Origin: Anaerolineales bacterium
GTDB taxonomy: Bacteria; Chloroflexota; Anaerolineae; Aggregatilineales; J027
Assembly: GCA_020634155.1 (NCBI GenBank)
Contig: JACKCI010000001.1
Location: 907,768-971,767 of the forward strand
Length of the DNA stretch: 64,000 nucleotides
Direction of reading: 5' to 3'
Shown here: positions 34,839 to 64,000 of the stretch, in pieces
Numbering within the stretch: the stretch's first letter is position 1
How the letters are laid out: each line of letters begins with the position of its first letter
Made by a program: the position numbers and the translations under genes
The notes under the pieces: generated by a model
The model's database searches: none
What the model was told of the DNA's origin: nothing
The model's input: the letters and a program-made list of their open reading frames with translations, nothing else

Positions 34839-37082
<2,244 letters not shown>

Positions 37083-37251
37083 AGACTTGTTACACTTTCT
37101 ACAAAAACAACGCCATTGTGGATTCAGCAACGGCGTGATTATCGTCGGTTAGCCTTTCTTCGTTACTATAACACAGTGGAGGGGTATCAGTTATGCCCGA
37201 TGTCCATAATTCGTGGTGCCAAAACACACAACTTGGCCTATAATTCATACT

Positions 37252-45906: not shown

Positions 45907-46938
45907 ATGAAAAAACTCTTTTTTATCTGTGCGCCAACTGATTACCCTTGGACTCGTAGCCTTGCCCATCAATTCTTCAGCATGGGATACCGCGTATACC
46001 TTGAACCACCCGACGAAGCTGATGACGAAAAAGTCCGTGAGCGTACCGCCCGCGCCCTATATAATGCTGAAATCATGATCGCTATTGTCTCCAAAGAAAG
46101 CGCCATTGGCAGTTCTGCTGAGGCATTTGAAGCATGGTGGCGGCCTTTTGTTGATTCGGGACGGCAGGTGATTGCTTGCATCACACCCGACTCACCCGCA
46201 GGCGCTGAAAACTGGATTCCTTACGACCTGATTCGCCGTCCACATGTGGATTTTCGGCGGGCAGGTGGAGCGGCGCGTTTAGCTGAACTGGTCAATAAAG
46301 ATGGCTCCACCACACAAGCACGCCCAGCACACACCAATCATGAGGATGATTACGAAGCCCAGTTTGAACCAGAGCCAGTCGCCGCTTATCCAACCCAACC
46401 CGTCACCCCTGTAAAAGATGAACCCGAGTCAGCATCAAAAACATCCATTATTCGTACTCTGATTGGCTTGGTGGTAGGGTTCATTATGGTATTGGTAATT
46501 TGGCAGGTGGCCCTACAGAGCGACAACGGTGATGCTCTCATTTGGGTAGGCGGATTAGCTATTATGGTGGTCGTAGTTTATTTGATTGGGCGGTGGCGTC
46601 CGCAATCTCGCAGCCAAGCAGCGAAAAAGCTGGTGGGCTATCTAGAGGTTATTTCGAGCGATGATGCCAAGACAAAAGGACGTGTTTATGGCCTCATGAA
46701 CACCTTACACATTGGCTCTGGACGGCGTGCCCAAATCCGCCTTAAGGTTGAGGGAATCGAAAAACAACACTGCACCATCTTTTATGATGGCAAAGCCTAC
46801 TACCTTGAAAACACCAGTGATAGCCGCACGATATTGTATGATCGGCAGCTAGACAGTGGTGAAGTGGTTGTATTGCAGCACGGTGATTTAATTACCGTTG
46901 GGCAAGCCGTAGTCTTGCAGTTCCGTACCCAGCTTTAG
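45907..46938 (+). CDS. TIR-like domain, 2 TM helices, C-terminal FHA domain signalling protein
   Basis: 343 aa. Residues 1-130 show the TIR_2-like pattern (KLFFICAPTDYPW...EIMIAIVSKESAIGSSAEAFEAWW). An acidic/Pro linker follows, then two TM helices (IIRTLIGLVVGFIMVLVIWQV and ALIWVGGLAIMVVVVYLIG). The C-terminus is an FHA fold (GSGRRAQIRL...HCTIFYDGKAYYLENTSDSRTILYDRQL...GDLITVGQ). Confidence 0.6.
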   Translation: MKKLFFICAPTDYPWTRSLAHQFFSMGYRVYLEPPDEADDEKVRERTARALYNAEIMIAIVSKESAIGSSAEAFEAWWRPFVDSGRQVIACITPDSPAGAENWIPYDLIRRPHVDFRRAGGAARLAELVNKDGSTTQARPAHTNHEDDYEAQFEPEPVAAYPTQPVTPVKDEPESASKTSIIRTLIGLVVGFIMVLVIWQVALQSDNGDALIWVGGLAIMVVVVYLIGRWRPQSRSQAAKKLVGYLEVISSDDAKTKGRVYGLMNTLHIGSGRRAQIRLKVEGIEKQHCTIFYDGKAYYLENTSDSRTILYDRQLDSGEVVVLQHGDLITVGQAVVLQFRTQL

Positions 46939-47356: not shown

Positions 47357-47793
47357 GAGGCTATGATGGTGGCAAGCACATCAAAGGTCGCAAGCGCCAT
47401 TTGGTGGTCGATACGGAAGGGTTTGTGTTGCGAGCTTTCGTAACTGAGGCTAACTACCACGATGGTACTGTCGGTACGTGGCTCTTAGATGACTTGAGTA
47501 ATCGCTTTCCGCGTTTAGAAAAGTTATGGGCCGATGGCTCTTATCGTGGCACGTTTGTTGACCATGCTGCTGAACGTGGCATCACGGTTGAGATTACGAC
47601 CCGCTTGAGTGACCAACCCGGCTTTCAAGTCATTGCCCATCGTTGGGTGGTAGAACGCACCTTCGCATGGCTCAATACCTACCGTCGTCTCAGCAAAGAC
47701 TACGAGTATTGGGTCTACGCATCCGATGCCACTATCTACGCCTGTATGAGCCATCTTATGCTTCGCCGTTTGGCTCGTTTGGCTCCCACCTGA
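47350..47793 (+). CDS. IS5-family transposase OrfB (DDE catalytic part), expressed as OrfAB fusion by -1 frameshift
   Basis: The -1 frame relative to OrfA is open from about 47350 (…GVRGYDGGKHIKGRKRHLVVDTEGF…) through the DDE region (…HDGT…WADGSYRG…ERTFAWLNTYRRLSKDYE); the slippery run A5G6 lies at 47343-47353. Confidence 0.75.
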   Translation, partial: GVRGYDGGKHIKGRKRHLVVDTEGFVLRAFVTEANYHDGTVGTWLLDDLSNRFPRLEKLWADGSYRGTFVDHAAERGITVEITTRLSDQPGFQVIAHRWVVERTFAWLNTYRRLSKDYEYWVYASDATIYACMSHLMLRRLARLAPT

Positions 47794-48136
47794 CCTTTTC
47801 AAACGGCCTCTGAATATCAGGCGAGCTAGACTTAGTGGCGGGGGTAGCAGCAGTGCTATCGCCCTTGGCGCTGGTATCGGTGGTCTCGCTCTTAGCGCTG
47901 GTGTCCGTGGCATCACCGCCTTTGGTGGTGCTAGTCACACCCGCGCTGTTCTTGCCCCGGCTGTCGGTCACGTACCAACCAGACCCTTTGAACACCACGC
48001 CAGCAGGTTGAATGACTCGAAAAACCGTCCCCTCTGTCTCACACACGGCACAGGTCGTTAGGGGATCATCATTAAAACTCTGCTTGACCTCAAAGGAATT
48101 ATCACATGCACGACATTGATAGGCATAAACTGGCAT
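47756..48136 (-). CDS. FmdB-family zinc-ribbon protein with IS-altered C-terminus
   Basis: N-terminal MPVYAYQCRACDNSFEV...CAVCETEGTVFRVI zinc ribbon; low-complexity Thr/Ser/Asp tail; the last 17 codons (RPFEKVRWEPNEPNGEA) are encoded by the IS right end. Confidence 0.6.
   Translation of the reverse strand: MPVYAYQCRACDNSFEVKQSFNDDPLTTCAVCETEGTVFRVIQPAGVVFKGSGWYVTDSRGKNSAGVTSTTKGGDATDTSAKSETTDTSAKGDSTAATPATKSSSPDIQRPFEKVRWEPNEPNGEA
47795..47811 (-). repeat. IS right terminal inverted repeat (rc AGAGGCCGTTTGAAAAG)
   Basis: Reverse complement equals the left IR with one T/C mismatch. Confidence 0.75.
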
Positions 48137-48241: not shown

Positions 48242-51200
48242 TCATCCACCACCGGGGCGGAAGAAGCTCGGTTGCTCCTCAGCAGGTTGTTGACTACGGC
48301 AGATTTGCCAACTTTCACCCTGCTTAACCACATGCAGAGACGGATAGCCTGACGCGACCACTTCGCTTTGGGTTTCGGTACCGGGTTTGAAAACCATCAC
48401 CCCACCCCAATTAATTGTGCCTGAGTTACCTGCCAACTCGACGCTAATCTCTAGCTCGCGGAAATCCGCACCAAGATAGGGCTGGGCAACAAGGTTTTGG
48501 AAAGCTACAGCATCAATCGGGTAATCGGCTTGGGTTTTGTCTTCCGCACAGAATAACGCATTGTACAAATCAAAGTTGCCCGTTGTCAGAGCCTGCCAAT
48601 AGGCATAGCCTACTTCACGCACAACCCGCACATCAGTGGCATCCGTTTCAGCCGTAGACCCAATCTCGGTTCCATCATCCACATAGAGGGGGTCAGGAAT
48701 AGGGGCCAATCCACCACTAATACCCAAAGGCGGGAAAATGATAATGCGTGAGGTTTGCGGATCAGCCACATACACCTGCCCATCTTTTCCAAAAGCGATA
48801 CCACCGACAGTCTCCATACCTTGCGGGAAGCCATCCGGTGGCACCAGAGGTGTATTAAAGGACAAAACCGCCCCCCCCCGCAGGTCATAGGCCACTACTC
48901 GCGGGCCATTGTTACTTTCACTGGCATCCATATCTGATACCAATATCAATGTGCCATCTGGTGAGATAGACAGATAAGGACGATGCACAGAGTTCCGCGC
49001 ACCTGCCCACATATTGACATCCCAACTCATAACAAACGTACCATCACGGCGGAAGGCCGAGATTTTTTGATTCCACGTCTCGGCAACATAAAGCTCACCA
49101 GTAACCGGATGAATAGCCAACCCAACAGGTTCTGGCTCGGCTTGTAGGCCATTGCCTTGGGCAGTAATGTCGTATAGGTGCTGATAGTTGGCATCATAGA
49201 CACGAATGCGGTGCCCGCCTGTATCAGCTACAAAGATATTGCCTTCGTTATCAACTGCCACATCACGTGGGCCATAGAGGGACATCGGGCCACCATCATC
49301 TGGTGTACCAAAGGTGCCAAAGACCCCCACCATCTCGCCCGTCGGTGAATAGATAACAATACGGTGATTCCATGTATCCGCCACATAGATATTGCCATCA
49401 TGTGGACCAACCGCAATCCCCCAAGGTTCATTGAGGATTTCAGGGCCGCCAAAGACGTCAATGGAAGTGCCATCTGGGGCGAACTTCACAATACGATGAT
49501 TGCCCGTATCAGCAGCATAGACATAACCATCCGTATCAGATGCGAGGTCACGCGGGTTGAGTAACTCGCCGACGCCAAAAGCCGATTGAGCATTAATCTC
49601 TTGATAGACAGTATCTTCAGGATCAGGAATCAAGCGTTGGGCAACGCTCTGCCCACGCAAACCAGCATCCCAGATCTGAACGGCAAAGTCCTTCCGCACA
49701 TACATATACAACTCATCGGACACTGGCCAGCGCTCAATATTGAACTGCGGGTCATTGCGGCAACTATTGGTTATACGTTGCACACAGTTGGGGTCAAGGA
49801 CTCGTTCATCAGGGTCTGTTGAACCTTCGGGCTGGATATAGCACGCGGGCGTTTCACGCTCCACACATAGGGCCGTCGCATAAGAACCATAGTCGCGCTC
49901 CCACCAAATATCCCAAAGAGACTGTCGATAATACTTGGCTGAAGGGTTGACATCATCTGGCTCAAAGATATTGGTGATTCGGTCAGCATTGAGGTTGAAA
50001 TACTCCTGCATCGGCCACCACAAGCGAATCAGATCAAAGCGGTAGTAGTCCTTGCCGAGTATCCGCTCAATCTCCGTATTCTTGCGATTGCCCGCAATGA
50101 CGACCAACGCGCCCTCAATATTGCCTATTTGATTCTTGACATCCTCCCCAGTCCCCCACAGATAACGCTTGTCCGTGAAATCCCGCAAGTACCAGAGCAT
50201 GGGCCAACTGGAGTCATCATCATAGGCGACATGGATGTTCATGCCTTCGGGACTATGGTCAGCAAAATACATTAAGTCAGCCACCACATCCTTAACGGCG
50301 GGGCCAGCATGGGCATACACACCAAATTCGGTAGGATAGTCATAGTTAATGTAGGTAAATAGCCACGCTGCCCGCACCGTCAACATCGCCAGCAGTAAAG
50401 CAAACGCCCCTATGAACAAACGCCGCGCTTGGTCAAAACCGACATCCGCCGTTAAGCGCACACCAAAATACCCAGTGATTGCCAACGCAATAAGAGCCGA
50501 TATCCATCGCCCAGTAGCGTCAAGAGCCATCTGAGTTTGGCCTTGAAAAGGCAGATTATTACCTGTGGCATAGGGTAAGGCCAGTTGCGATAGGGCCACC
50601 AGAAACACAGGAACCACAAACAGCAGCAGTATCCACCCACTGCGTTTAAGCGCATCCCAGCGAATGCGCTCCACTACGCTCCCGATATACCAGCCACCAG
50701 CCAAGGTTAGCGGTAAGGAGAGATGGGTGGTCAACCAAGGCATTTTCTCACCAGCCATCGTCAAGGCCACTAAAATCAGAATGCCCCAGTAGCCAACTAA
50801 GGCCAAGAATGGCAAGCTACCGAGGTATTCATGATCGGTCTCGCTCATCAAGCGGTCTTGTTCAGGGTTATAGGCATAACGCGATACTCTGCCTTCACGC
50901 TGTCCCCATTCAGGCGATACCCACGCAGGACTGTCCTCACTGTCCACATTCGATTCATCTATTAGAACCTCGTCAGCTTCAATCAGAATGGGTTCATCAC
51001 CTACTACGATTTCCTCGCCCTCAGCCTGTTCACTTTGAGCAGCACGTGCTGCGGCAGCATTGAGCATAGCCTGTTGACGGCTACGGTAGCGGAAATCGAA
51101 GAAATGGGAGACTCCGGCAAAGCCCGCAAAAGCCGCCAAAATTGACGGCAAGAACTCATAGACGGGAAGTTGCACGAGTACATAATAGTATTGGGGTTGG

Positions 51201-53059
51201 CTTCCGCGCCGCACATCTTGTTGTTCGAGCCAATAGCCTAGCGACCCAATCAAGCCTGTGCCAATGCCGTTGCCATTGGTAAAAAAGGTTGTGAAAAAGA
51301 CAAGGAACAAGACGCCAAAGGCTGCCGCGGCAATCGGCCAAACTCGCCAATTCCACGCCAAACCCACCGCCGCACTCACCATCAGAAATGGAATCGCAGT
51401 GACAATCGCCGCTTGCACCGTTTCCAGCGGCAATGGTGCTTGGTCAAGGGTATAGCCTGCCCAAAATAAGGGGAAGGCCGCCAGCCAAGGAAAGACCATT
51501 GACCCCATAACAATCAATATGTCAAACGCTGGTTGGCGATTTAGCACATCCCACCAATTGGTGAGCAGCCGTGTAATCAATACACCCGTCACTGCCAGCG
51601 ATAGCACAACCCATGTGAGGAATATCGGGGCATTGTCATGTTCAAGGGTTTGGGAAACATCCTCAGCATTGGGGTCAATCGCTACAGGCCCCGTATTAGT
51701 CTCATCTGAGGGGTGGCTATGACGCTCCAAGACGAGCAAGATGCTCATAAACACAAACGCAATGACGAGCAGCGCCACAATGTCTTGCCATGTCGCCCGC
51801 TTGATAATGCCAATGAGGACAATACTAAAGACAAGGAACCCTAACGGAACAATCGTCCATTCCATAAAGATGTTCAGTTGGTTCTCAGCTAGTTTGGGTA
51901 TAAGCGCATTGGTTACCGGGTCATAAGCTTCAATGAAAATAGTGGCGGGCTTAACAATATCTAAGATGACCATACCCCATAACGCCATCACACTCCCAAC
52001 AATCGCCCCGGCAGCAACCAAGAGCATCGTTGACCGTGTGTTGTAGTAAATCGCGTTGGTGACCATGCGAACCGTGATAGGTAGCCCACCGCGCCGATTA
52101 AAAGCGATACGGATGAGGCCAAAAAACTCGACAATCGCCAACGCAATTAGCACACCATATAGTTGCAGAACGCGGTCTGGCCCTATCTCATGAGAGCCGA
52201 CATGAAAGCCTAAATCGCCAGAAATCAAACCGGAGTCTGTCTTATAGAACTCGTACCACACGCCGCCGATGGTGTATCCAAGTATCCCTACCCCAGCCAA
52301 AATAACTAGGTAGGCCAAAGGATAGAGCCACCAAGGAGGGGTCTCACGGCGTGGCGGTAACACTGCCGTAGCGTCCGCATCAACAGGCTGTCGGAAAGCT
52401 CCCCGCATAATGTCTTGTACCAAGCGCAGGAGCCAATACAGCGTCAAGAAGCTTCCGAAAATCGCCACATACATAAAGGAGACTTCTTTGGAGGCCAACA
52501 TCAACAGGAGCGCTCCGCTGAATACCGGAATCCAAATCGGGCGGCGCGGTTTCTCACCGTCTAGATATTGGAGCGTGGCATACAACATCACCATTGCAAA
52601 GAACATGGAGGGGATGTCGTGGCGAATGTAGCGGCTGTAGTACAAAATCATCGGGGAGATGAGAATGCCCACCGCTGCCAGCACCGCCCCTACCTTGCCC
52701 AACCAGCGCCGAAACAATAGGGGGAACATGACCAACGCCACCCCCAGCAACGCTGGGTAAATCCGCGCACTAAAATCGCTGGGGCCAAACAAGAAATAGA
52801 AGAATGCCGTTGCATGGAACAACAACGGCCCGTGCATCAAGGGGGTGTGGTCAAAACGCCCATATTCGTACAGTTCCCACGAATAATAGGTGTGCAAACT
52901 CTCGTCATGGCTCATCACCCGTAGGCCTAAATCCCAGAAGCGACTCAATACCGCCAAAATCAAAATGGCGGTATAGATGACAGCTTCCCAATTCAGGCTA
53001 TAGACACGGGCTAATACATGGTCGAAAGGCTGTTGACGGGTAGATGTTGTCGTTGCCAT
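48242..53059 (-). CDS. Giant integral membrane protein: N-terminal GT-C/PMT-like polytopic domain (companion family of Chlor_Arch_YYY, TIGR03663-like as I recall), 6-bladed NHL-repeat beta-propeller, then C-terminal about 150-aa domain
   Basis: 1605 aa; the N-terminal 500 aa has 12 or more TM helices with a DE-containing first loop (MSHDESLHTYYSWELYEYGRFDHTPLMHGPLLFH); more TM helices around residues 750-900; six NHL repeats ((Y/I)(V/F)AD(T)xNHRI(V/R)x(F/Y) recurring: YVYAADTGNHRIVKF, IYVADTWNHRIVIY, IFVADTGGHRIRVY, LYVAETWNQKISAF, VYVADPQTSRIIIF). Confidence 0.7.
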   Translation of the reverse strand: MATTTSTRQQPFDHVLARVYSLNWEAVIYTAILILAVLSRFWDLGLRVMSHDESLHTYYSWELYEYGRFDHTPLMHGPLLFHATAFFYFLFGPSDFSARIYPALLGVALVMFPLLFRRWLGKVGAVLAAVGILISPMILYYSRYIRHDIPSMFFAMVMLYATLQYLDGEKPRRPIWIPVFSGALLLMLASKEVSFMYVAIFGSFLTLYWLLRLVQDIMRGAFRQPVDADATAVLPPRRETPPWWLYPLAYLVILAGVGILGYTIGGVWYEFYKTDSGLISGDLGFHVGSHEIGPDRVLQLYGVLIALAIVEFFGLIRIAFNRRGGLPITVRMVTNAIYYNTRSTMLLVAAGAIVGSVMALWGMVILDIVKPATIFIEAYDPVTNALIPKLAENQLNIFMEWTIVPLGFLVFSIVLIGIIKRATWQDIVALLVIAFVFMSILLVLERHSHPSDETNTGPVAIDPNAEDVSQTLEHDNAPIFLTWVVLSLAVTGVLITRLLTNWWDVLNRQPAFDILIVMGSMVFPWLAAFPLFWAGYTLDQAPLPLETVQAAIVTAIPFLMVSAAVGLAWNWRVWPIAAAAFGVLFLVFFTTFFTNGNGIGTGLIGSLGYWLEQQDVRRGSQPQYYYVLVQLPVYEFLPSILAAFAGFAGVSHFFDFRYRSRQQAMLNAAAARAAQSEQAEGEEIVVGDEPILIEADEVLIDESNVDSEDSPAWVSPEWGQREGRVSRYAYNPEQDRLMSETDHEYLGSLPFLALVGYWGILILVALTMAGEKMPWLTTHLSLPLTLAGGWYIGSVVERIRWDALKRSGWILLLFVVPVFLVALSQLALPYATGNNLPFQGQTQMALDATGRWISALIALAITGYFGVRLTADVGFDQARRLFIGAFALLLAMLTVRAAWLFTYINYDYPTEFGVYAHAGPAVKDVVADLMYFADHSPEGMNIHVAYDDDSSWPMLWYLRDFTDKRYLWGTGEDVKNQIGNIEGALVVIAGNRKNTEIERILGKDYYRFDLIRLWWPMQEYFNLNADRITNIFEPDDVNPSAKYYRQSLWDIWWERDYGSYATALCVERETPACYIQPEGSTDPDERVLDPNCVQRITNSCRNDPQFNIERWPVSDELYMYVRKDFAVQIWDAGLRGQSVAQRLIPDPEDTVYQEINAQSAFGVGELLNPRDLASDTDGYVYAADTGNHRIVKFAPDGTSIDVFGGPEILNEPWGIAVGPHDGNIYVADTWNHRIVIYSPTGEMVGVFGTFGTPDDGGPMSLYGPRDVAVDNEGNIFVADTGGHRIRVYDANYQHLYDITAQGNGLQAEPEPVGLAIHPVTGELYVAETWNQKISAFRRDGTFVMSWDVNMWAGARNSVHRPYLSISPDGTLILVSDMDASESNNGPRVVAYDLRGGAVLSFNTPLVPPDGFPQGMETVGGIAFGKDGQVYVADPQTSRIIIFPPLGISGGLAPIPDPLYVDDGTEIGSTAETDATDVRVVREVGYAYWQALTTGNFDLYNALFCAEDKTQADYPIDAVAFQNLVAQPYLGADFRELEISVELAGNSGTINWGGVMVFKPGTETQSEVVASGYPSLHVVKQGESWQICRSQQPAEEQPSFFRPGGG

Positions 53060-53074
53060 ACATGCTCCAAAAAC

Positions 53075-53614
53075 TTAACGGTAACGCGCCTCGCGGCTGG
53101 GTTCAAGGGTAGCACCGGGCATCGGTGCTGGGCTGGCTGACCAGAGGATACTGGTAAGCTCATCGCGCTCGGTGGTTTCATTCGCCACCAACAATACGCT
53201 TTCAGCCTCTAAGGTACTATCTTGCACAACAGCGGTGCTGGTTTGCAGCGGTACATTGTGGGGCCAAGCGCCCGCCGCGTCAACCGCCGAATTGTGCAAA
53301 AAGAACGGTAACAGCACCAATAACACGGCCATGCTTCCCACCAAAATCATGGACTGAAAGTTAGTAGTAAGCAATGGGCGGCGCTTGGGGCGGGTAGCCT
53401 GTTCCAGAATCGACGGTAAAAGCGCCTTCAAACGGTCTGGGGCTGGCTCGCCAAACAGCGGCATCTCCCGCCGCAGTTCGGCCTGTGTCTGGCGAACCGC
53501 CTGATATTCACGTTGCCATGTGGCGGATTGTGCCAGATGGCGGGTAACTTTTACTCGTTGGTCAGGGGCCAATGTCCCCTCAAGATAGGCAATGAGTTGC
53601 TCCCGAATATCCAC
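53075..53614 (-). CDS. Anti-sigma factor (single-pass, small extracytoplasmic domain)
   Basis: 179 aa; N-terminal anti-sigma-like helices (MDIREQLIAYLEGTLAPDQRVKVTRHLAQSATWQREYQAV; no Zn-binding Cys/His); TM helix MILVGSMAVLLVLLPFFL; start 2 nt after the ECF sigma stop. Confidence 0.55.
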   Translation of the reverse strand: MDIREQLIAYLEGTLAPDQRVKVTRHLAQSATWQREYQAVRQTQAELRREMPLFGEPAPDRLKALLPSILEQATRPKRRPLLTTNFQSMILVGSMAVLLVLLPFFLHNSAVDAAGAWPHNVPLQTSTAVVQDSTLEAESVLLVANETTERDELTSILWSASPAPMPGATLEPSREARYR

Positions 53615-53616
53615 AG

Positions 53617-54201
53617 CTAACCAAATACCTCCTCCAACGCTAGTTTGGTTTCATCCATGACTTGTCGTAGAGATTGATGCGCCAGCCGCACCCGTGACTC
53701 GGCGGTTTTGGGTGGGATGTTAAGAATGTCCCCCATTTCTCGGTAGGTCAATCCCTGTCCATAGCGCAATGCGACAGCTTCGCGCAAGCGTGGCGAAAGC
53801 GTCTTGAGGGCTTCCCCCAACGCACGCTGGGCGTCTCGGCGGATGGTTGTCCGTTCTGGATTTTCGTCATCCGGCGCGGCAGGGTCTAGCCCATTCGCCA
53901 ATAAATCACTGAGTGCCACCATCGGCAACAGTTTGCGGCGGCGGGCATTGCGACAGCGGCTAATCGTGATGGTATATAGCCATGTACGGAATGCGCCCCG
54001 CTCTGGGTCATAGCGGGACAGGTTGCGAAACACGTACACAAAGACTTCTTGCACTACGTCTTCAGCATCTTGCTGATGCAACAACACACTATAGGCCAAA
54101 CGATAGACTTCTTTGGCATAGAGGTCATATAATGCAGTGCAGGCGCTTTGGTCGCCCATTAAACTACGCTGCAAAAGGTCAGAAAAAATTGGGTCGCTCA
54201 T
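53617..54201 (-). CDS. ECF-type RNA polymerase sigma-70 factor
   Basis: Start at internal Met (cat 54199-54201, MSDPIFSDLL), giving 194 aa; sigma-70 region 2 (YRLAYSVLLHQQDAEDVVQEVFVYVFRNLSRYDPERGAFRTWLYTI) and region 4 (LRYGQGLTYREMGDILNIPPKTAESRV). Confidence 0.8.
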   Translation of the reverse strand: MSDPIFSDLLQRSLMGDQSACTALYDLYAKEVYRLAYSVLLHQQDAEDVVQEVFVYVFRNLSRYDPERGAFRTWLYTITISRCRNARRRKLLPMVALSDLLANGLDPAAPDDENPERTTIRRDAQRALGEALKTLSPRLREAVALRYGQGLTYREMGDILNIPPKTAESRVRLAHQSLRQVMDETKLALEEVFG

Positions 54202-54226
54202 GTTAAACACTACACCCTTGCCTCGC

Positions 54227-56434
54227 CTATTGCGTAGTAACCGTCTGGACACCGTAGACATCGCTCCGAACCCACAACGTATAATGCAAATCAGGTGTTG
54301 GCTCAAAACGGGTCTGGCGGGTAAACAACCACGACCCGAAATCTGTCCAGTTCAATTCCGATAGTGACCACTGGGTATTCAATATAAAGTCCTGCCCCAC
54401 ATAATCTGCGCCCAACGCAACAGGCACTTGATCATAAGGCGTGATAACAGCAGCGGTAATGGTCTCAATACCCACACCCTCAACATAGGTTGTGTTGGGG
54501 AACTCACGCAGCAACCATGCCAACGCCCCATCGTCCGGCCCCTGCACTGTAATTGTCAGGCGGTCACGGGTGCCATTCTCAAAACGCGACATCTGCTCTA
54601 AGGTCTCAACCAGTCGGTGCGATTTTTCGAGCATCGGGGCTTGGTTCCAAAGCTCACGTGGGTCATCGCCAAAAGTATGACTCGCCTGCCACCCTAGCCC
54701 TAAGCCATAGACCATGCAATAGCCAAGTAGCCCTAGGCCCAAACCACGCCATGCGGCCCGTGTCCCCCACAGACTCCCCACTAGAAAATAGACTATCACC
54801 ATCAGCATCACCAAGAAAACCATTACCATCAGATTCAAAGGTGATTTGGCATAAGTTGAGACAAAACGGGTCAGAAGCCGAAACTCTGGAATATCAAGTT
54901 GGTAGCCGGGTAGGACATTGCCGATAATTCCGTGCTCCTCAACATCACCCGCATAAGGCAACACCATATATTGCCCGCGTTGGTCACCTGTCCCTGTAAT
55001 CTTAAGGAAATAACTACCAGCGCGGGGAAACGTGATTGGTTGCACCAAACCACGTCGCCCATCAGTATAGGTAAATGGCCCAGCGAGGAACCCATCGGGC
55101 GAATCAATCAACACAATAGGGTTAACACTGCTGTCAAGTTCTCGGATTTGAAAAACCAGCGTAGTGGGTTCGGGCACATACAACTCAAAGGTCGAAGTTG
55201 GATTGTTCAGGTCGTAGGTACCAATACGAGCGCTATTACTGAGGACAGTGGTATCTACAAAGTGGTTGTAAACCGGGCGGGTTTGGCCTTGCAGAATGCC
55301 AGAAATATTGGTGGCATTTATCGCCAAGGATGTAAGGAGTACCATCATCGTCACTGCATGGAGGGCTATCCCCCATGAGGGTACCACCCAATAGCCTGTC
55401 GATGGATTCCGCAGCATTTGAGCTGCCAGAAGCGCCGTTAAGCCCGCCGCAGGGATAACAACCCACAATGCTGCATCTGGTGTAGGATTGGCATACAAAA
55501 TGCTGACCACCAAACTCCACACGAACCAACCAACCAGCACATCTGCTAAGAAGTTGCGTTGCAGAGTGAATATCGCAATTAGCCCAAATAGTACCAGCCC
55601 AAAGTCATAGCGTAGCGCTACCCAAAAAGCATAGGCAAAGGGCGTTCCGTCAGGACGTTCAAACAGCCCTAGGAACAGCCAATAGAGGGTACTACCCGCT
55701 GACGTTAGACCCGATGGAGCCATCATAAAGCCTGTGCCGACAATTACAATCACGCCTAAAGCCGCCATCAAGCCTTCACCCCAAGGCCACTGTTTCAATA
55801 TGGCTCCAATCTTTACCGGGGGATTGGCCCGCCAGAGAGCCGTTGCTAATCCTACTATGATACCAAACAGAGTGATTGCGCCAGTAGGTTCGGTCAATAC
55901 CAAGATGACAGCGCCCGCGCAGGTGGCAGTAATGGCAAAGGCATTGCGTCCAGTCTCAGCATAGCGTCGAACAGCCCATACCATCACAAACACAATCGCC
56001 ATTGTCCACGTCACAGCCCCCATCATACGTGAGGCGGTCAACGCTACGGGGGAGATTGCCAGCAGGGTCGCCATGAGCAATGCCGATGTCTTACCCATTG
56101 ACTCACGCCATAGCAATGGCCCCAAGACCAACAGTGTTCCAACAATTGCGGTTGGGATACGGGCGTTGGTCGCACTCGGCGCAGAGATGAAAAACGTGAC
56201 TTGATTGGCAAAAGCCATCAAAGGGTTGTGTGCAACAGCCGATTCAACACCGCGCACCGATTGCAGCGCTGCTAGTGCTTCGGTCGCACTCCGTGCATCT
56301 AATGGCACATCACCCAATGAAATCACACGCATAGCAAAAGCCAATACCAATAACCCGATATAGGCTAAGGTCTCTACCCGAATACCCAGCCGAAAAGTGG
56401 GTGTTTCTTGGGCGTGTTCGTAAGCCATTTCCAT
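54227..56434 (-). CDS. Polytopic membrane protein, GT-C-like; homologous to the N-terminal domain of the 48242..53059 protein (TIGR03663-like companion family)
   Basis: 735 aa; its N-terminal 150 aa align with the giant protein (NPLMAFANQVTFFISAPSATNARIPTAIVGTLLVLGPLLWR versus HGPLLFHATAFFYFLFGPSDFSARIYPALLGVALVMFPLLFRR); about 14 TM helices; an extracytoplasmic beta-rich insert. Confidence 0.6.
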   Translation of the reverse strand: MEMAYEHAQETPTFRLGIRVETLAYIGLLVLAFAMRVISLGDVPLDARSATEALAALQSVRGVESAVAHNPLMAFANQVTFFISAPSATNARIPTAIVGTLLVLGPLLWRESMGKTSALLMATLLAISPVALTASRMMGAVTWTMAIVFVMVWAVRRYAETGRNAFAITATCAGAVILVLTEPTGAITLFGIIVGLATALWRANPPVKIGAILKQWPWGEGLMAALGVIVIVGTGFMMAPSGLTSAGSTLYWLFLGLFERPDGTPFAYAFWVALRYDFGLVLFGLIAIFTLQRNFLADVLVGWFVWSLVVSILYANPTPDAALWVVIPAAGLTALLAAQMLRNPSTGYWVVPSWGIALHAVTMMVLLTSLAINATNISGILQGQTRPVYNHFVDTTVLSNSARIGTYDLNNPTSTFELYVPEPTTLVFQIRELDSSVNPIVLIDSPDGFLAGPFTYTDGRRGLVQPITFPRAGSYFLKITGTGDQRGQYMVLPYAGDVEEHGIIGNVLPGYQLDIPEFRLLTRFVSTYAKSPLNLMVMVFLVMLMVIVYFLVGSLWGTRAAWRGLGLGLLGYCMVYGLGLGWQASHTFGDDPRELWNQAPMLEKSHRLVETLEQMSRFENGTRDRLTITVQGPDDGALAWLLREFPNTTYVEGVGIETITAAVITPYDQVPVALGADYVGQDFILNTQWSLSELNWTDFGSWLFTRQTRFEPTPDLHYTLWVRSDVYGVQTVTTQ

Positions 56435-56446
56435 GAAATTCGTCCT

Positions 56447-59400
56447 TTATTCAGGCCGGATACGATAAACAGCCACATCCCCATAATGACATACGGGGTC
56501 AAGCAGTTGGGCAAACTTACTGAGGCCGGGTGAGTCTAGACCATCGCTGCCACCATAACGCCGTATCTCGGAGACCCCCACTACGACATAATCCACCCCA
56601 TAAGGTGCGATTATTTGCTTGGCTTCGTTCCACTGATCAGCAGGCATACGATAAAACAAATCAATATCAGAAGCACGAGCATCGGCATGAATCACGGTAC
56701 TATAATCCTCACCACGCCATTGTCGCTCATGGTTATCCCAACCGAGCAAGGTCGGAATGCCTGTGTACATACTAAAACGGCCAAGTTCAGGGGTATAGGC
56801 TCCACCACTAGCCTCTACCAACACCGCATCCGATTTATACGGCTCCAAGTCAGCAAGGCACTGCATCGCCTTGAACTCATCTTCGCTAATCGGCCATGAC
56901 CGCCCAGCCCACACAAAAGTCGAGGAGCCATCGAGTGTAATGGGTGCCTCTTCACGGCACAACTCCCCTTCGCAAGCTCGCGCTTGGGGACGGCTCATCT
57001 CATACAGGAAGCGGCTAGGGATTGCATAGTAGGGATAGAGCAAAACACTAAACAAAACGATGGCCGCCAGTCCACCATAGGCGACATAGCCTACCCGCCA
57101 CTGGCGAGATGGTGGGGACACTTCACTATGGAGACGTTCAGGGCCACGCAATACCGCATAAACTGCATAGGCGGCGCTAATTGATAGCAATGACCACGCT
57201 TGATAATAGAGCTTGAACACGGTATTAATGCGGCTACTGAAGTTATCTCGCAAGTACATGAAATCTGGCATCAGGACGGCTAAGACGCCTGCCCCTATCA
57301 AAAGTAAAGCTGCACCTGTATTGGGGCTAAAGCCAACTGCTGAATCCTGCTGACGCCCCCCACGTGTAAACAGGCGCATCGCCACCACACCTGCCAATAA
57401 AAGCAATATCGCTTCGCTTCCAATAGCCGTCGTGCGCCGCATAATCACACGCCGCGCCATCGCTACCGACGATTCACCATCTAGCACGCCACCTAATAGC
57501 GATGATCGTGCAGTACAAGCCCATTCTGAGAAGCTATCGACCTGCCCCGGCTTCTCACCAAGGGCGGGGCATTGCCAGTTAATAAACACAGTAGAGATTG
57601 TTGGCACCAAGAACATCATCAATAAGCCAATCAGCACAATGCTAATGACCCCTGTCCAGTTGAGTCGGTGCCGTACTCGCCACGCTTGCCCCAGCACAAA
57701 AGGTGCAATCAAAAGGATAAAAGCGCCGAATTGCAGAAAAGCCTGCTGAGTACGGGTAGGATGAATGATATTGGGGAAAAAGCCATTGGCTTGGCTGGCA
57801 AAACTCTCTAACCATAAGAAGTAAAAGCCGTAGAACGTCAGGAAGAGGACAGCACCAAAGCGCCCAACGTGGCTCCAGTCAGTATCGTCCAAGAGCCAAT
57901 TGACCAACAACGTTGCGGGTATCGACACAAACAGCGCCAACACCATTTGCAACACAAAACGCACCAACGGCACAGTATCAAGGCCAGCAGGCAGGTTATT
58001 CGTCAAACTGAGGTCAATCCCACGCTGGCTCAGGAAAAACAAGACCACAATATATACAGGGCCGATTAGCCAGCGATTGAGGTCAGACCGCCGCCGCAAG
58101 GTGAGTGTATCAACAAACTCAGCCCATCCTGTCAGGCTACCTGTGCCGTTACGAGATAAGCGTCGCACTGCCTCTGCTGCAACCACCACCAACAGATATA
58201 CGGCATCCCACGCATTGGCAAAAATCATGCCACCGATAAAGATGCCATAGATAATCATCTCCCAATACTGGAGAGGTGTGGGGCGTAAGACCAATGCCAC
58301 GGCCAAGCCAATCACCAATACGGTGAAGGGTAAGCCAAGGACATGTGGGTGATTGTCCGACAGGATAAAACTAAACTGAGGGATTTCAGCAATTGGTTTC
58401 GGTTCAAAATGATTGCCAGACAGATCACGGTCACGCACAAGACGACTATGGGCGAACCACCACCAGTAATCCCAACCCAGTGGTTGGGGGTCATCATCCC
58501 AACTCGGAATTCCATCGTTATCCGGATCAGGCAAGGCTTGGTAATTTTCCATTAGGGGGCTATTAGGGTCAAGCCGTACAACCTCGTCGCTTTTATAAAT
58601 ATCCAGATTGCGCGTACCGTCAGCATTACGTCCCCCATCGGTATAAAAAGGGCCAGCCCGTCCATGCACATCCCAGAAGTTAAAATAATCGTCGCTGACA
58701 ATCTGATTCACAATTGGGATATTGGAGGTATAGCCACGAAATGGCAACTCAACTAATACTGTCCCCAGATGCCCACCCAGCGCCAAGAAAACCGCCGCTA
58801 ATAAGCCAATCCCTAGGCCAACTTCAATACCCCCTGTGCGCCAGCGTTGCAATGGGCCGGCAGAGCAAACAAGGTTATAGCCGACCCCGAAGGCCGTGGT
58901 CATCGTTAAGGCAAAAAGCAAAGCATCAATCAAATTGAAGGCCATACCAGTGGTGACATTGCTTAAGTCAGCCAAGCCTGCTGCCAACACATATCCAAAG
59001 TAGTAGTAACTGATGGCGTAACCCGAAAGCCAAGGGTCTTTAGGAGGAAAGGTCAACGAATTGCGAATGCCATTGATGAAGGCCATCTCCATTGGCTTCT
59101 CGGTGGAGGTCAATTCGGGATTATGAGCTTGCATATAAGCCCAAGCCACAAACGTCACGGCAAACAACAATTCCGTGACGATAATCAATGGGGACTGCTC
59201 AATCAGCCACTGGCGTAATTCCTTGAATGTTGGACGTTGCGACCAGCGTACCCAAACCCATAGGCTTGCAATCAGCACTAAGAACCACGCAAAGGCCATC
59301 GCGCCGGGGTCGTTTTGTAGCAAGCCAATACTGGCTAGGAGCCAGAAGACCGCCCCCACAAGCAGCAGCCCTGCCGCCCGTGCCATCGCATAGCCGCGAT

Positions 59401-59599
59401 CCGCCAAACCGGACAGCAACCGGAATAGCAGAGGCAACACAGCCCAACCAGCCATTGTGGTAAGCAACCACCATGAAAACACATAGCGGCCCTCGTTAGT
59501 CAACCACTCTCGCGCCAATTCAAGTGGAGAGAGTGAGAATATCGCCCCCCCAAAGCCGATTATCGGCACGACCCAAAGCAAACTTAACCATCGTCGCAT
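56447..59599 (-). CDS. Chlor_Arch_YYY (DUF2298) family integral membrane protein
   Basis: 1050 aa; hallmark YYYxGY motif in context KPMEMAFINGIRNSLTFPPKDPWLSGYAISYYYFGYVL; more than 20 TM helices; C-terminal extracytoplasmic domain of about 200 aa shared with the upstream paralog. Confidence 0.75.
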   Translation of the reverse strand: MRRWLSLLWVVPIIGFGGAIFSLSPLELAREWLTNEGRYVFSWWLLTTMAGWAVLPLLFRLLSGLADRGYAMARAAGLLLVGAVFWLLASIGLLQNDPGAMAFAWFLVLIASLWVWVRWSQRPTFKELRQWLIEQSPLIIVTELLFAVTFVAWAYMQAHNPELTSTEKPMEMAFINGIRNSLTFPPKDPWLSGYAISYYYFGYVLAAGLADLSNVTTGMAFNLIDALLFALTMTTAFGVGYNLVCSAGPLQRWRTGGIEVGLGIGLLAAVFLALGGHLGTVLVELPFRGYTSNIPIVNQIVSDDYFNFWDVHGRAGPFYTDGGRNADGTRNLDIYKSDEVVRLDPNSPLMENYQALPDPDNDGIPSWDDDPQPLGWDYWWWFAHSRLVRDRDLSGNHFEPKPIAEIPQFSFILSDNHPHVLGLPFTVLVIGLAVALVLRPTPLQYWEMIIYGIFIGGMIFANAWDAVYLLVVVAAEAVRRLSRNGTGSLTGWAEFVDTLTLRRRSDLNRWLIGPVYIVVLFFLSQRGIDLSLTNNLPAGLDTVPLVRFVLQMVLALFVSIPATLLVNWLLDDTDWSHVGRFGAVLFLTFYGFYFLWLESFASQANGFFPNIIHPTRTQQAFLQFGAFILLIAPFVLGQAWRVRHRLNWTGVISIVLIGLLMMFLVPTISTVFINWQCPALGEKPGQVDSFSEWACTARSSLLGGVLDGESSVAMARRVIMRRTTAIGSEAILLLLAGVVAMRLFTRGGRQQDSAVGFSPNTGAALLLIGAGVLAVLMPDFMYLRDNFSSRINTVFKLYYQAWSLLSISAAYAVYAVLRGPERLHSEVSPPSRQWRVGYVAYGGLAAIVLFSVLLYPYYAIPSRFLYEMSRPQARACEGELCREEAPITLDGSSTFVWAGRSWPISEDEFKAMQCLADLEPYKSDAVLVEASGGAYTPELGRFSMYTGIPTLLGWDNHERQWRGEDYSTVIHADARASDIDLFYRMPADQWNEAKQIIAPYGVDYVVVGVSEIRRYGGSDGLDSPGLSKFAQLLDPVCHYGDVAVYRIRPE

Positions 59600-59602
59600 A
59601 AG

Positions 59603-62600
59603 TTAGGGAACCTGTACTACTTGTTGTGGATAATCAACATTCGGCACCACCTGATAAATCACATCGGTACTGATGCGGTCTGGTGGGCAATCTTGCACGG
59701 TAAAGATATTGGGATGCACGCAGACCTGCTGTTCATAGGCTCGCGTCAATAGCCCCATCTCCACCATATCATCGAACTTCGCCAAGCCTGCTGACAGGTT
59801 TTGGCGGAAGACTGATGGGTCTGCGGCGGGGTCTGCCTCTTTAATATCCTCGTAAATAATACGCTCGAAGGTGCCAACAATGACATACTCGACATCGTAA
59901 TAGTCAATCATTGACCACGCCTCGGCAATATCAGGAGTGGTGTAGAAAGTACGGATATTTTGCAGACGATCATTCAACAGGCGGTCTAGCCCATCCAGAT
60001 TACGCTGCTGACTCTGATGGAAACGCCAACCAAGGATAGTTGGCAGGCCAGTTTGAATAGCAATCCGCGAACTCCATGAATATTCAGTGTGTTGGCCTTC
60101 AATAATGGTTGGTGTACCTTGCACATTATCCTCTAGCCAGTGAATCATCTGGTAATCGCCATTGAGGTTGAACCAAACACCCGGAGTCGGGCCACCACCG
60201 TCAGGGTCTTCACCATGCGGAGCCACTTGCATAAAAGCAGTGCCGTCCAGTGTCAGCGGTGTTTCAGCCTTATTGAAGCGGTCAACGAAACGACCTTGGG
60301 TGGCGGTAATGGGATAGAGCAAAGCGATACTGAGCAAAATAGCCAGCACCATCTGCCAAACCCCACTCAGGGCAGGTCGCCAGCGTGCCGCAGAACGCAA
60401 CATCCACGCCAAACTCACGCCACTGGCAATACTAAGAAGAAGCCACACTTGGATATAGAACTTGAAGACTGTGTTCTGACGCCCAATGTCGCCACGCAGC
60501 ACAAAGTATTCGACTGCCATTGATAGGCCCAAGGCCAGCCCCGCTAATATATACACCCAGCGCTCCACATGGCTTTGGTCAGGCAAGAGAAACAGAACCG
60601 CCAGCCAAATGAACATCGGCAGCGCCACCCAATACACCGGATAGTCTAGACCCAGCACAATCGTAATCAGCACCGTCGCAGGAATAAGGCCGACCACCGC
60701 CAAGAACGGCACCCCGTATGAGCGTATATCCGCAACACGATGCCGCCGCAACCAGCGGGCTGTCTGCCAAACCAGCATACTACCGATGATGAAGATAAAG
60801 ACACCATGTATGTCCAAATAGGCCCAAAGCGGAGTGCGGTCATTCTGCCATTTCAGAATCTCACCATAGGCGGTAGCAAAATAACTGCTAAAGGGCCATA
60901 TCGCCACAAAACTTATCACGCCAAAACCAAGCAGCCGTGCCACCCACGCAAGAATCGCCTCACGGTTGAAGCGATTACCCAAGAGCAACAAACCCGCAGC
61001 ATAGAGCGCAACCACCACGGCCAACAAACCAACACCCCACACCGTTGTTTCACCAATTGAGAAGTAGGGTTTGAGTTTACCTTCGCAAAGAGGGGATAAA
61101 GTTAGGGGATCAACCGTGCGGGCGTCAATCTCCGTGCAAAAGGCCGGAATCTGGCCCGCCGTGAGTTGGTTGTCATATTGGCGTGTTTCATATAAATACA
61201 ACCCACCGCGCAACATCATCCCCAAGGGCAACGCCAGCAGCAAAGGCCACAGCATCATGACATAACGTACATCAAGGAAGCGCAACAGGCGTTGATAGAG
61301 TGAAACAGGCGGCACATCTTGACGCAAGCGTCCCTGCCCGATCCATGCCGCATAGGTAAGCCCCACCACACTCAAAACCATGTAAGTGGGCCAATCCCAT
61401 GTATTGGTAGGGCGCAATAGGCCCGCGGTCATGCCACCAATCGCCAAAGCCAGCCCCGCAGCCCAAATAGGCCGTAGACGCCGCCCTGCCCCCAAAATCT
61501 CCGCTGTCAGCCACAAAATCACCAATAGAGTCAAGGGCATTGCCATCATGTGAGCATGCATATCACCATAAAGGAAGGTGAAGTAGGGCATCTCAGCAAT
61601 AGCATTATGCCCACGTCCATTATCGAGTTCCGCAATCACGCGTGTTGGTGCCCAATACCAACGGTGGGCTGGGACAGATAAAGGGCGTTCACCACTCACG
61701 ACTCGCTTAAAACCACGCGCCATTGCTGCGAACCATTCCCTCGACTGCGTAAAATATGAGACACCCGCATCGGCTTCAATTTGGGCTAGTTCGGTATCAC
61801 TCGGAAACCGCCCGTTCTCATTTTGAAAGACCCAAATTGCGGTATCAATGTTCGATTGGCGCAAAACGGAAGAGGGTGTGTAATCGCCCGCTTGGGCAAT
61901 CCCATTGGCAAAAACCCGCACGGTGTCTAAATTGCCTAAAACCGCCGCCAGCAGCAAGGCAATAATCCCCGCCACATAGGGACTAGCCGAAGGGCCGGGA
62001 TATTCGGTCTCACGCGCCGAAGATTGATGGGTCAAATGCCGACGCTCATTCGTCCATGCCACTAAGTTATAAGCGACACTAAAGGCTCCCATCCCTGTCA
62101 TCGAAAACAGGGTCGGCAATAACAAGTTATAGGCAAGGCTTGGCGGCACACCCAGCAGCTTGGTTGGCGCACCAACCAACACATATCCCCAATAGTAATA
62201 ATTGATATAGCCATTCGCATACCAAGGGTCGATAGGCGGGAAGATGGTACTCCGCAACACCCCATTAAAATAGGCCATATTCATAGGCTTTTCGCCACCA
62301 AAAGAGCCATGCCACAGATCAGGGTTACCCAAGCGCACCCCTAGAAAAAACAGGAACATGGCAAGGGCAATGCCTTCAATAATCAGCAAATGCCGCCACT
62401 TGGCTCGTATAAAAGCCATTAACTGCTGACGGCGTACAAAAGCGATGACACCATTGATCAATGTTAGGCCCAGCAGCAGACCAGTCAAGCCTTGTTGTGA
62501 CCATAATGGCAGGGTTAGCGTGCTGCCAAACCATGCCACCCATGCGACCAATAACCACGCCATCAGCTTACCCACCGCAAACCCTCGGTCAGGAAGGCCA

Positions 62601-64000
62601 ACAAAGATAACCTCCAGCAAAGGTAAGCACATCCACCCTGCCAGCACCATCAATCCCCACCAAATGATGACCGTCAGCACTTGGTTGCGTTCATAGAAAC
62701 GGCTAAAGAGGTCTGACCATGTACCACCATCGCGCTGGGTGGCAAGTTGTTCGTCTGTAAATTGCAGAGCAGTTTGGCTCTTGGAAGCTGTTGGAGCATC
62801 CCATTTAATGCGATTAATGGGTTCAATCACATAAGGATCAGGGGCATCGTCCGCTGACCGGATATTGACCCCATCCAGAATAGCCGCTGCTTTTTCAGGT
62901 GTATATTCGGCAGTCTTCCGCAATAGAAACACTGCTGGATGGTCATAAACATGGAAGGCTTCTTCGGCCTCTAGTTCGTTGCGCCAATCGGGTAAATCGT
63001 CAGTGGGCAGCACTTGGTCTTGCCAATGGAAGGGGCCAAACTCCGGTTCAGCTACAAAAGTTCGAACCACTTCAAAGCCCAATTCACCTGAAAACAGCGC
63101 CTCATAATAACGGTTGGTCATCGGCCAGCGGGTAGGGATACGCGACTGCGAATCATAGAAGCGGTTGCTGCCCACCACCAGATAATCCATCTGGTTGAGT
63201 TGATCAAGCAGTTGGTCACGCTTCGAGACCTCATCCGGCCAGAACATATTCATCGTGATGCCGATGTAGTAGCCTGTGTAGAGATTTACGGCGGGAATAT
63301 ATAGTGTACACATACCCGACGGCAAGTCGTCACGATAGGACATGCCGATGGGTACTGGACAAACAGGCGTCGGCAATGGGTCATCCCAAGGGCCTTCCCA
63401 TGCCACTGCTGCACCGCCAATCCCAACCCAGTCATCGGGTGCAAAGGTCAAGGTATAGCGCTCACCCGCCTCAACTGAAAACGGTTCATCTAACTCCAGC
63501 CTGACTTCAGGGCCAAACACCAAATGCCCATCATCAACCGCGTTGAAGTCCCCCGTTGCCACCGCTTCGGCTGAAAGGCCAGAGGCCCCAGTGCGTCGAT
63601 CATCCTTCAAGATAACGCGCACCGTCTCAGGTGTGGTATCGCTGAGAGCATCACTAACATGCGGTATCACAATCTGGCGAATCGCCCCAGTTGCATTGGC
63701 AACAAATTCATAATCAGATTGAACGCTACCGCTGAAATACGCAATATCGCCCGAAGTCGTGGGGAGGGGAAAGGTCAACTCTTCAATATAGGGTTCGTCT
63801 GTCTCTAGCGTGCGGTAGAACATCGTGATATGCGAAAATCCAATGCCGCTACCGTCATTGGTGGCTAGGGTGACAGGGCCACCTTCTAAAACCTCGACTT
63901 CTAGCCAATAGGAAGCAACTGAATCACCAATCTCAATCGGTGGCTCAAACAAGACTGTGTACTCGGTACCCAGCGGGCCACCACCCCCTGCATTCAAGTC
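59603..64000 (-). CDS. Chlor_Arch_YYY (DUF2298) family integral membrane protein, larger paralog with about 450-aa N-terminal extracytoplasmic domain (5' partial; continues past window end)
   Basis: At least 1464 aa. The track 'Met' is a TTG at the window edge, with an in-frame codon before it, so the true start is beyond 64000. YYY motif [39 protein letters not shown]. The C-terminal domain is homologous to that of the 56447..59599 protein (TLDG...LLGW...YVVVG/YVIVG). Confidence 0.75.
   Translation of the reverse strand, partial: [1465 protein letters not shown]

Follow-up and report, generated by a model that had tools for sequence, protein, structure and literature searches.

The gene described here lies in a 64,000-nucleotide stretch of DNA from an Anaerolineales bacterium (Chloroflexota; Anaerolineae; contig JACKCI010000001.1, positions 907,768 to 971,767), which was analyzed as a whole and is hereafter termed the window; nucleotide coordinates refer to it. 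The minus strand holds an open reading frame (ORF) at 48242..53059, with an ATG start, GGAG ~9 nt 5' of the ATG, and 1605 codons plus a stop codon with zero internal stops. The encoded protein of 1605 amino acids (aa) consists of a TIGR03663/glycosyltransferase C (GT-C) domain, followed by an NHL propeller and an NTF2-like domain, and its gene closes a run of six closely packed genes on the minus strand of the window. Annotation names for this NHL fusion are 'TIGR03663 family protein' (NCBI) and 'membrane-bound mannosyltransferase/beta-propeller fold protein' (JGI). An artefactual origin, in which mis-assembly or a sequencing frameshift merged two genes into one long ORF, would be in keeping with two of 83 related loci (L072 and L078), which carry the propeller in a separate or overlapping ORF. 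However, an identical 1605-aa protein has already been deposited ('MAG: TIGR03663 family protein [Anaerolineales bacterium]', where MAG denotes a metagenome-assembled genome) on a 2.18-Mb contig, and more than 120 protein clusters (1300-2100 aa, 34-77% identity) share the PMT_2 plus NHL architecture; together with ~80 species genomes, these clusters carry the fusion as a single ORF at 29-77% identity. Because the same protein and so many clusters of like architecture exist, the long ORF is not an assembly or frameshift artefact, and that explanation is effectively refuted. The original prediction, made from the sequence of the window, that this ORF is uninterrupted over 4.8 kb without a frameshift is thus borne out: the protein is a genuine 1605-residue membrane protein, and the fusion is neither an artefact nor rare.

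The membrane domain scores 238.3 bits against TIGR03663 (NCBIfam 'flippase activity-associated protein Agl23'; cut-off 126.25) in two stretches, the best of which spans residues 28-228, and residues 76-205 match Pfam PMT_2 (PF13231) at 34.8 bits (cut-off 26.1). The protein was folded by AlphaFold2 (AF2) as two overlapping pieces, residues 1-1150 and 1101-1605, from 52-sequence alignments. The first piece (predicted local distance difference test [pLDDT] 85, predicted template modelling score [pTM] 0.88) shows 16 transmembrane (TM) helices, an acidic loop, five further TM helices and an alpha/beta domain, and by model comparison its membrane domain is structurally similar to solved GT-C enzymes. 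The protein is an integral-membrane GT-C-fold protein of the TIGR03663 (Agl23) family; the PMT-like membrane domain of the original prediction, also termed GT-C-like there, therefore stands as regards its GT-C, PMT-like polytopic character, but is placed more precisely in TIGR03663 (238 vs 126 bits).

The GT-C core (residues 1-656; 51092..53059, minus strand, as for all features of this gene) has 16 predicted TM helices, from TM1 (residues 24-41) to TM16 (636-656), and a cytoplasmic N-terminus. Its first extracytoplasmic loop contains two motifs that are invariant in the 52 aligned sequences: SHDESLH (residues 50-56; 52892..52912), which includes the putative catalytic pair D52-E53, and HGP (residues 76-78; 52826..52834), which aligns with K85-P86-P87 of ArnT. 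R40, R143 and R146 are likewise invariant, and we take these residues to be the invariant N-terminal DE dipeptide, HGP tripeptide and arginines by which the TIGR03663 family is described. A profile of residues 1-232 retrieves ArnT (5ezm) at E 3.2e-8, with SHDES aligned to PDEGR(Y), such that D52-E53 corresponds to D55-E56 of ArnT. A long loop, extracytoplasmic by predicted topology, precedes TM16 (residues 591-635; 51155..51289; GSLGYWLEQQ-VRRGSQPQYYY...P.YE) and is strongly conserved, with invariant columns from G605 to E635. Membership of two better-known GT-C families was considered and rejected. For PMT/GT39, a MIR domain was absent from the Pfam results and PF02366 did not reach threshold, PMT_2 alone passing; for STT3/AglB/PglB (GT66), there is no STT3 Pfam match, the outer domain has R-x-WWPMQ and not WWDYG, and the similarity is at the level of the fold only.

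The core is followed by a cytoplasmic linker (residues 657-750; 50810..51091), which comprises a long helix and then a disordered, poorly conserved acidic stretch (21 D/E, 8 K/R; pLDDT <50 at residues 684-722), and by a second bundle of five TM helices (TM17-21; residues 751-904; 50348..50809) with an invariant, outward GEKMPWL motif (770-776). This bundle had been anticipated at around residues 750-900. If the usual arrangement of GT-C proteins, a cytoplasmic N-terminus and an external first loop, is taken as the starting point, the 21 membrane-crossing helices of the model leave the ~700 residues from 905 to the C-terminus on the external side. This predicted placement is in line with four independent observations. 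Lysine and arginine account for 18 of 102 aa (17.6%) in the short loops assigned to the inside and for 10 of 208 aa (4.8%) in those assigned to the outside, with acidic residues biased oppositely; all six cysteines of the protein fall in the predicted outer part; homologues append C-terminal domains of extracellular type, such as FGE-sulfatase and fasciclin; and of 113 invariant alignment columns, 106 map to the exterior or to the outer half of a TM helix (background fraction 61%) and a single one to a cytoplasmic loop. As the invariant columns are mostly on the outer side, the conserved working surface would face outward, as in GT-C transferases. The AF2 topology, charge bias and homology also support the earlier proposal that the propeller sits outside the membrane.

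The extracytoplasmic part, as assigned by topology, begins with an alpha/beta domain (residues 905-1151; 49607..50347) that contains the conserved motifs YD..E..YAH, D..WP..WY.R and R.WWPMQ. It carries an insert (residues 1065-1100; 49760-49867) with four cysteines (C1065, C1073, C1092 and C1100), which behave as a unit among the 52 homologues: all four are retained in 34, and all four are deleted from the other 18. The alpha/beta domain is followed by a six-bladed NHL propeller (residues 1152-1442; 48734..49606), identified by Pfam (NHL, 114 bits vs a cut-off of 20), AF2, Foldseek and phmmer (E 7.8e-32 against the PDB) and likewise predicted to lie outside the membrane. In the second AF2 piece (residues 1101-1605; pLDDT 89, pTM 0.83), which resolves both the propeller and the C-terminal domain, the blades reach pLDDT ~95 and span residues 1169-1204, 1212-1247, 1264-1298, 1311-1347, 1363-1402 and 1420-1442, with four strands each except for blade 6; the latter has three strands of its own and is read as completed by the N-terminal strands at 1152-1161 of the model. 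The five blade sequences quoted in the original prediction are all present in the translation, and the 'probable sixth' blade corresponds to the degenerate blade 5, TLILVSDMDASESNNGPRVVAY.

By Foldseek, the propeller is closest to the NHL domains of TRIM71, Thin, TRIM2 and Brat (TM-score 0.81-0.85) and to the sensor domain of PknD (0.77). We also considered that the propeller might itself be catalytic, acting as a lactonase, lyase or PAL-type enzyme that would trim or modify what the membrane domain produces. There is a partial SGL (SMP-30/gluconolactonase) match at residues 1214-1294 (40.6 bits vs a cut-off of 26.3), as well as weak Vgb_lyase, phytase-like and strictosidine-synthase-like matches, and PAL (3fvz) is among the structural neighbours. 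However, the best matches by far are the non-enzymatic NHL domains named above, and the conserved residues of the propeller are those of the usual structural NHL motif, so that we regard a catalytic propeller as very improbable.

The propeller is joined by a 30-residue linker of lower model confidence (residues 1443-1472; 48644..48733) to an NTF2/SnoaL-like alpha+beta domain (residues 1473-1590; 48290..48643), which is confined to the closest sub-clade and in which C1504 and C1587 are invariant. This is the separate small domain previously suspected in the last ~150 aa, and the C-terminal strings quoted for it are present in the translation. The AF2 model shows helices followed by five strands, consistent with the order in NTF2-like folds. 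The protein itself scores 17.2 bits against SnoaL_4, below the cut-off of 24, but seven of 13 orthologues match this profile over nearly its whole length (best E 9.9e-6); hits to the propeller swamped the fold search with the C-terminal model, so the tentative NTF2-like assignment rests on sequence. The C-terminal tail (residues 1591-1605; 48245..48289) terminates in a conserved FRPGGG-COOH. This sequence or a close variant ends 20 of the 21 closest protein clusters (homologues P0002-P0021), and in more distant relatives the terminus is either xxF-COOH or (A/V)G-COOH, the latter preceded by an acidic tail rich in T/E/P. Among the ORFs of the window and of four related loci, an FRPGGG C-terminus was found on this protein and no other, and because of this restriction it is not a sorting signal shared within these loci.

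A scan of one genome per GTDB species yielded at least 575 matching stretches, and the best 80 of these, which were analyzed, all belong to the class Anaerolineae (Anaerolineales, Aggregatilineales, Phototrophicaceae, Levilinea, Bellilinea, Leptolinea, Flexilinea and Ca. Flexifilum). Within these 80, every locus with a complete ORF has both parts in one ORF of 1100-1800 aa, save for two split versions, in which the NHL part has an ORF apart from that of the membrane part, itself 844 and 872 aa long (L072, 7299-10683, where the two ORFs overlap; L078, 9896-13499). These splits may be genuine or may be frameshifts in MAGs. In the Anaerolineaceae-type loci the fusion is shorter, ending directly after blade 6. 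Cultured carriers of the fusion include Aggregatilinea lenta and Levilinea saccharolytica. The orthologue search suggested in the original prediction thus recovers the same fusion in every complete ORF of the best 80 species loci, apart from two with a separate or overlapping propeller ORF; the fusion is as real as had been claimed, but less surprising, being the standard and already annotated architecture of a whole bacterial class. It recurs in hundreds of related species and is fixed across this mostly uncultured class, and the domain combination is already visible in automated annotation; nevertheless, we found no published description of a TIGR03663/NHL architecture in the literature on TIGR03663, TIGR03662, DUF2298, Chloroflexi NHL glycosyltransferases, or GT-C proteins with a beta-propeller.

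The other five genes of the cluster lie upstream of the fusion gene, all on the minus strand. The first encodes a giant DUF2298/TIGR03662 protein (>1465 aa; 59603..64000) that runs past the end of the window, and is followed by genes for a polytopic membrane DUF2298/TIGR03662 (Chlor_Arch_YYY) protein of 1050 aa (56447..59599); a TIGR03663-like paralogue of 735 aa without NHL (54227..56434); a sigma-70 family sigma factor of the extracytoplasmic function (ECF) type (53617..54306; true start probably M36 at 54201); and an anti-sigma factor of 179 aa (53075..53614), which has one TM helix (residues 88-106) and ~73 aa outside and ends 15 nt before the fusion gene. The anti-sigma factor has a weak zf-HC2 match and zero cysteines, denoting a zinc-free anti-sigma domain. 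In the paralogue, SATEA stands in place of SHDES and HNP in place of HGP; across the paralogue and ~35 orthologues, these motifs become x-(D/N)-x-E-A and x-S-P, such that the glutamate of the DE pair alone is kept. The 735-aa protein may be a non-catalytic or differently catalytic partner subunit. A profile comparison of the N-terminal GT-C module of the fusion with the 1050-aa DUF2298 neighbour revealed no relation between the two (probability 1.6%), and sequence searches of the PDB with the DUF2298 protein and the 735-aa paralogue returned nothing useful. The six-gene order is kept in A. lenta and two MAGs at 36-57% identity, with different genes downstream, and the cluster is present in ~40 of the 83 loci (L001-L008, L014-L039, L045, L050 and L077). 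This conserved context had been missed in the original prediction, which otherwise described the anatomy of the gene correctly.

The position of the ECF sigma and single-pass anti-sigma genes directly upstream, in conserved order, raises the possibility of an envelope sensor, in which the propeller would bind an external ligand and report to the sigma/anti-sigma pair, with the membrane domain serving mainly as an anchor or as a regulated effector. The resemblance of the propeller to the extracellular NHL domain of PknD, itself proposed to bind a ligand, is in keeping with such a role. However, about half of the loci keep the fusion without a strong sigma-factor match nearby (at most 43-84 bits), the membrane and alpha/beta domains are more conserved than the propeller and bear enzyme-like invariant motifs, and 21 helices would be excessive for an anchor. 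We consider a sensory function improbable; like a catalytic propeller, it is less well supported and is a minor rival.

We infer that the protein is an outward-acting GT-C glycosyltransferase with a polyprenyl-phosphate-sugar as its donor and that the propeller serves it as a module on the acceptor side, and we hold this combined assignment of activity, donor and acceptor to be moderately probable. As in ArnT, PMT and ALG12, the donor would be a polyprenyl-phosphate-linked sugar of the outer leaflet, and its sugar would be passed on to an acceptor outside the membrane; the conserved alpha/beta domain would complete the acceptor site, and the NHL propeller would hold or select this acceptor, possibly a glycan chain or a protein of the envelope. 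In this lineage, the partners of the fusion protein may be the two DUF2298 giants and the TIGR03663 paralogue encoded alongside it, and the whole, with the ECF sigma/anti-sigma pair in the middle of the cluster, would represent an envelope-glycan or glycoprotein assembly unit of Anaerolineae. Accessory modules are known from other GT-C enzymes, including the MIR domain of PMT, the TPR repeats of TMTC and TMEM260, and the carbohydrate-binding modules of EmbC and AftD, and by analogy it is reasonable to regard the propeller as an acceptor-substrate recognition module, as originally suggested. In another Chloroflexi genome, a PMT_2 protein with a PA14 domain adjoins a DUF2298 gene (PMC8756737), which fits the notion of interchangeable acceptor-side modules.

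Several points weigh against a glycosyltransferase function. The topology is a prediction based on the AF2 model, charge bias and homology, and as the model is in two pieces, the placement of the propeller relative to the active site falls outside it. In the Anaerolineaceae-type half of the loci, tblastn of the available upstream flank gave no match to the DUF2298 proteins or the paralogue of the window, and sigma-factor matches are weak at most (43-84 bits, tblastn); the partnership with the cluster genes is therefore not universal. A gene for a polyprenyl-phosphate sugar synthase was not found in the conserved cluster, and neither such a synthase nor an obviously linked glycosylation gene was detected in a Pfam scan of the ORFs at 26004-48136 (those at 1-26000 being outside the scan). 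Transferase activity, donor and acceptor are known for no TIGR03663 protein. The only characterized member, Agl23 of Haloarcula hispanica, is described as a putative hexose-P-dolichol flippase, and in purified form it moved M5GN2-PP-dolichol across liposome membranes; it also rescued a yeast rft1-delta mutant (PMC11182771).

The Agl23 data, together with membership of TIGR03663 and the NCBI name of that family, favour a translocator, in which the membrane domain would flip or scramble polyprenyl-phosphate sugars, or assist in this, and the outer domains would dock donor-using enzymes. Against this, the fold is that of GT-C transferases; the invariant acidic pair in the first outer loop aligns with D55-E56 of ArnT; and conservation is concentrated on the outer face and the outer alpha/beta domain rather than along a path across the bilayer. 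Moreover, we know of no translocator that has a GT-C fold. Based on the fold and the pattern of conservation, we prefer a transferase and regard a translocator as rather unlikely, albeit the foremost of the alternatives.

The finding is thus a GT-C protein that has an NHL propeller as its outer accessory domain, often within a conserved DUF2298/ECF cluster. Across all domains of life, surface polymers and glycoproteins are built by GT-C enzymes, whose targets are usually chosen by their soluble accessory domains. We found no account of an NHL propeller serving in such a capacity; in the present case it has become fixed throughout a class about whose envelope biochemistry little is known. Transferase activity is worth testing for in the Agl23 family, given the outward conservation, the GT-C fold and an acidic pair like that of ArnT, and the 'flippase' label of the family deserves a second look. 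In a more far-reaching interpretation, which we advance tentatively and consider doubtful, the six-gene cluster would be an undescribed, Anaerolineae-specific machine for envelope-polymer assembly or protein glycosylation, in which the propeller clamps the acceptor for the GT-C subunit and the sigma/anti-sigma pair monitors the output. If so, the cluster would offer an initial way into the construction of the cell envelope in these filamentous Chloroflexota, which is poorly understood, and the archaeal 'flippase' family Agl23 would in fact consist of outward-acting glycosyltransferases. In practical terms, the fusion represents a clear, testable target, since cultured species carry it, rather than a new principle.

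Just downstream of the cluster, 47401-47793 (plus strand) encodes a fragment from the C-terminal end of an IS5-family transposase (positions 132-257 of the 258-position model), which overlaps an FmdB zinc-ribbon ORF (47756-48136) on the opposite strand. Further away are genes for a 343-aa protein with an N-terminal TIR and a C-terminal FHA domain (45907-46938, plus strand) and three unremarkable genes of metabolism or the envelope, without apparent connection to the fusion, for an alpha-glucan phosphorylase (41010-43580, minus strand), a GDSL/AlgX-type SGNH protein (39465-40973, plus strand), and a malic enzyme fused to a phosphotransacetylase-like domain (34839-37130, minus strand).

Among known systems, the nearest by family is Agl23/TIGR03663, as the protein scores above the cut-off of the family hidden Markov model (HMM) and has the N-terminal DE and HGP motifs; members of this family have a link to polyprenyl (dolichyl)-phosphate sugars, and their genes frequently neighbour those for TIGR03662/DUF2298 proteins. 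Compared via the family HMM rather than the Agl23 sequence, the protein differs in being bacterial and in having 21 helices, including an extra five-helix bundle; it also adds ~700 extracytoplasmic residues (NHL propeller and NTF2-like domain), and its cluster embeds an ECF sigma/anti-sigma pair. ArnT (GT83, undecaprenyl-phosphate-L-Ara4N:lipid A transferase; 5ezm, 5f15) shares only 12-14% identity, has 13 helices, a small periplasmic domain and no propeller, and uses lipid A as its acceptor. Monoderm Chloroflexota are not expected to make lipid A. The propeller is comparable to that of PknD of Mycobacterium tuberculosis (1rwi, 1rwl; E 7.9e-16, TM-score 0.77), which is likewise a membrane protein with an extracellular six-bladed NHL propeller, although PknD is a single-pass Ser/Thr kinase sensor whereas the present protein is polytopic. 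The mycobacterial arabinofuranosyltransferases EmbA/B/C, AftA, AftB and AftD have accessory folds resembling carbohydrate-binding modules and not NHL, differ in taxon and polymer, and show no detectable sequence relation beyond the fold. PMT (GT39), TMTC1-4 and TMEM260 are GT-C enzymes that take their sugar from a lipid-phosphate-monosaccharide and bear, on the acceptor side, a soluble domain of repeats (TPR or MIR beta-trefoil), and the N-terminal ~215 residues of the fusion superpose on them at 2.9-4.3 A. The fusion has neither MIR nor TPR and carries its accessory domain at the C-terminus, not within a loop, but these enzymes offer the best analogy for how it may work.

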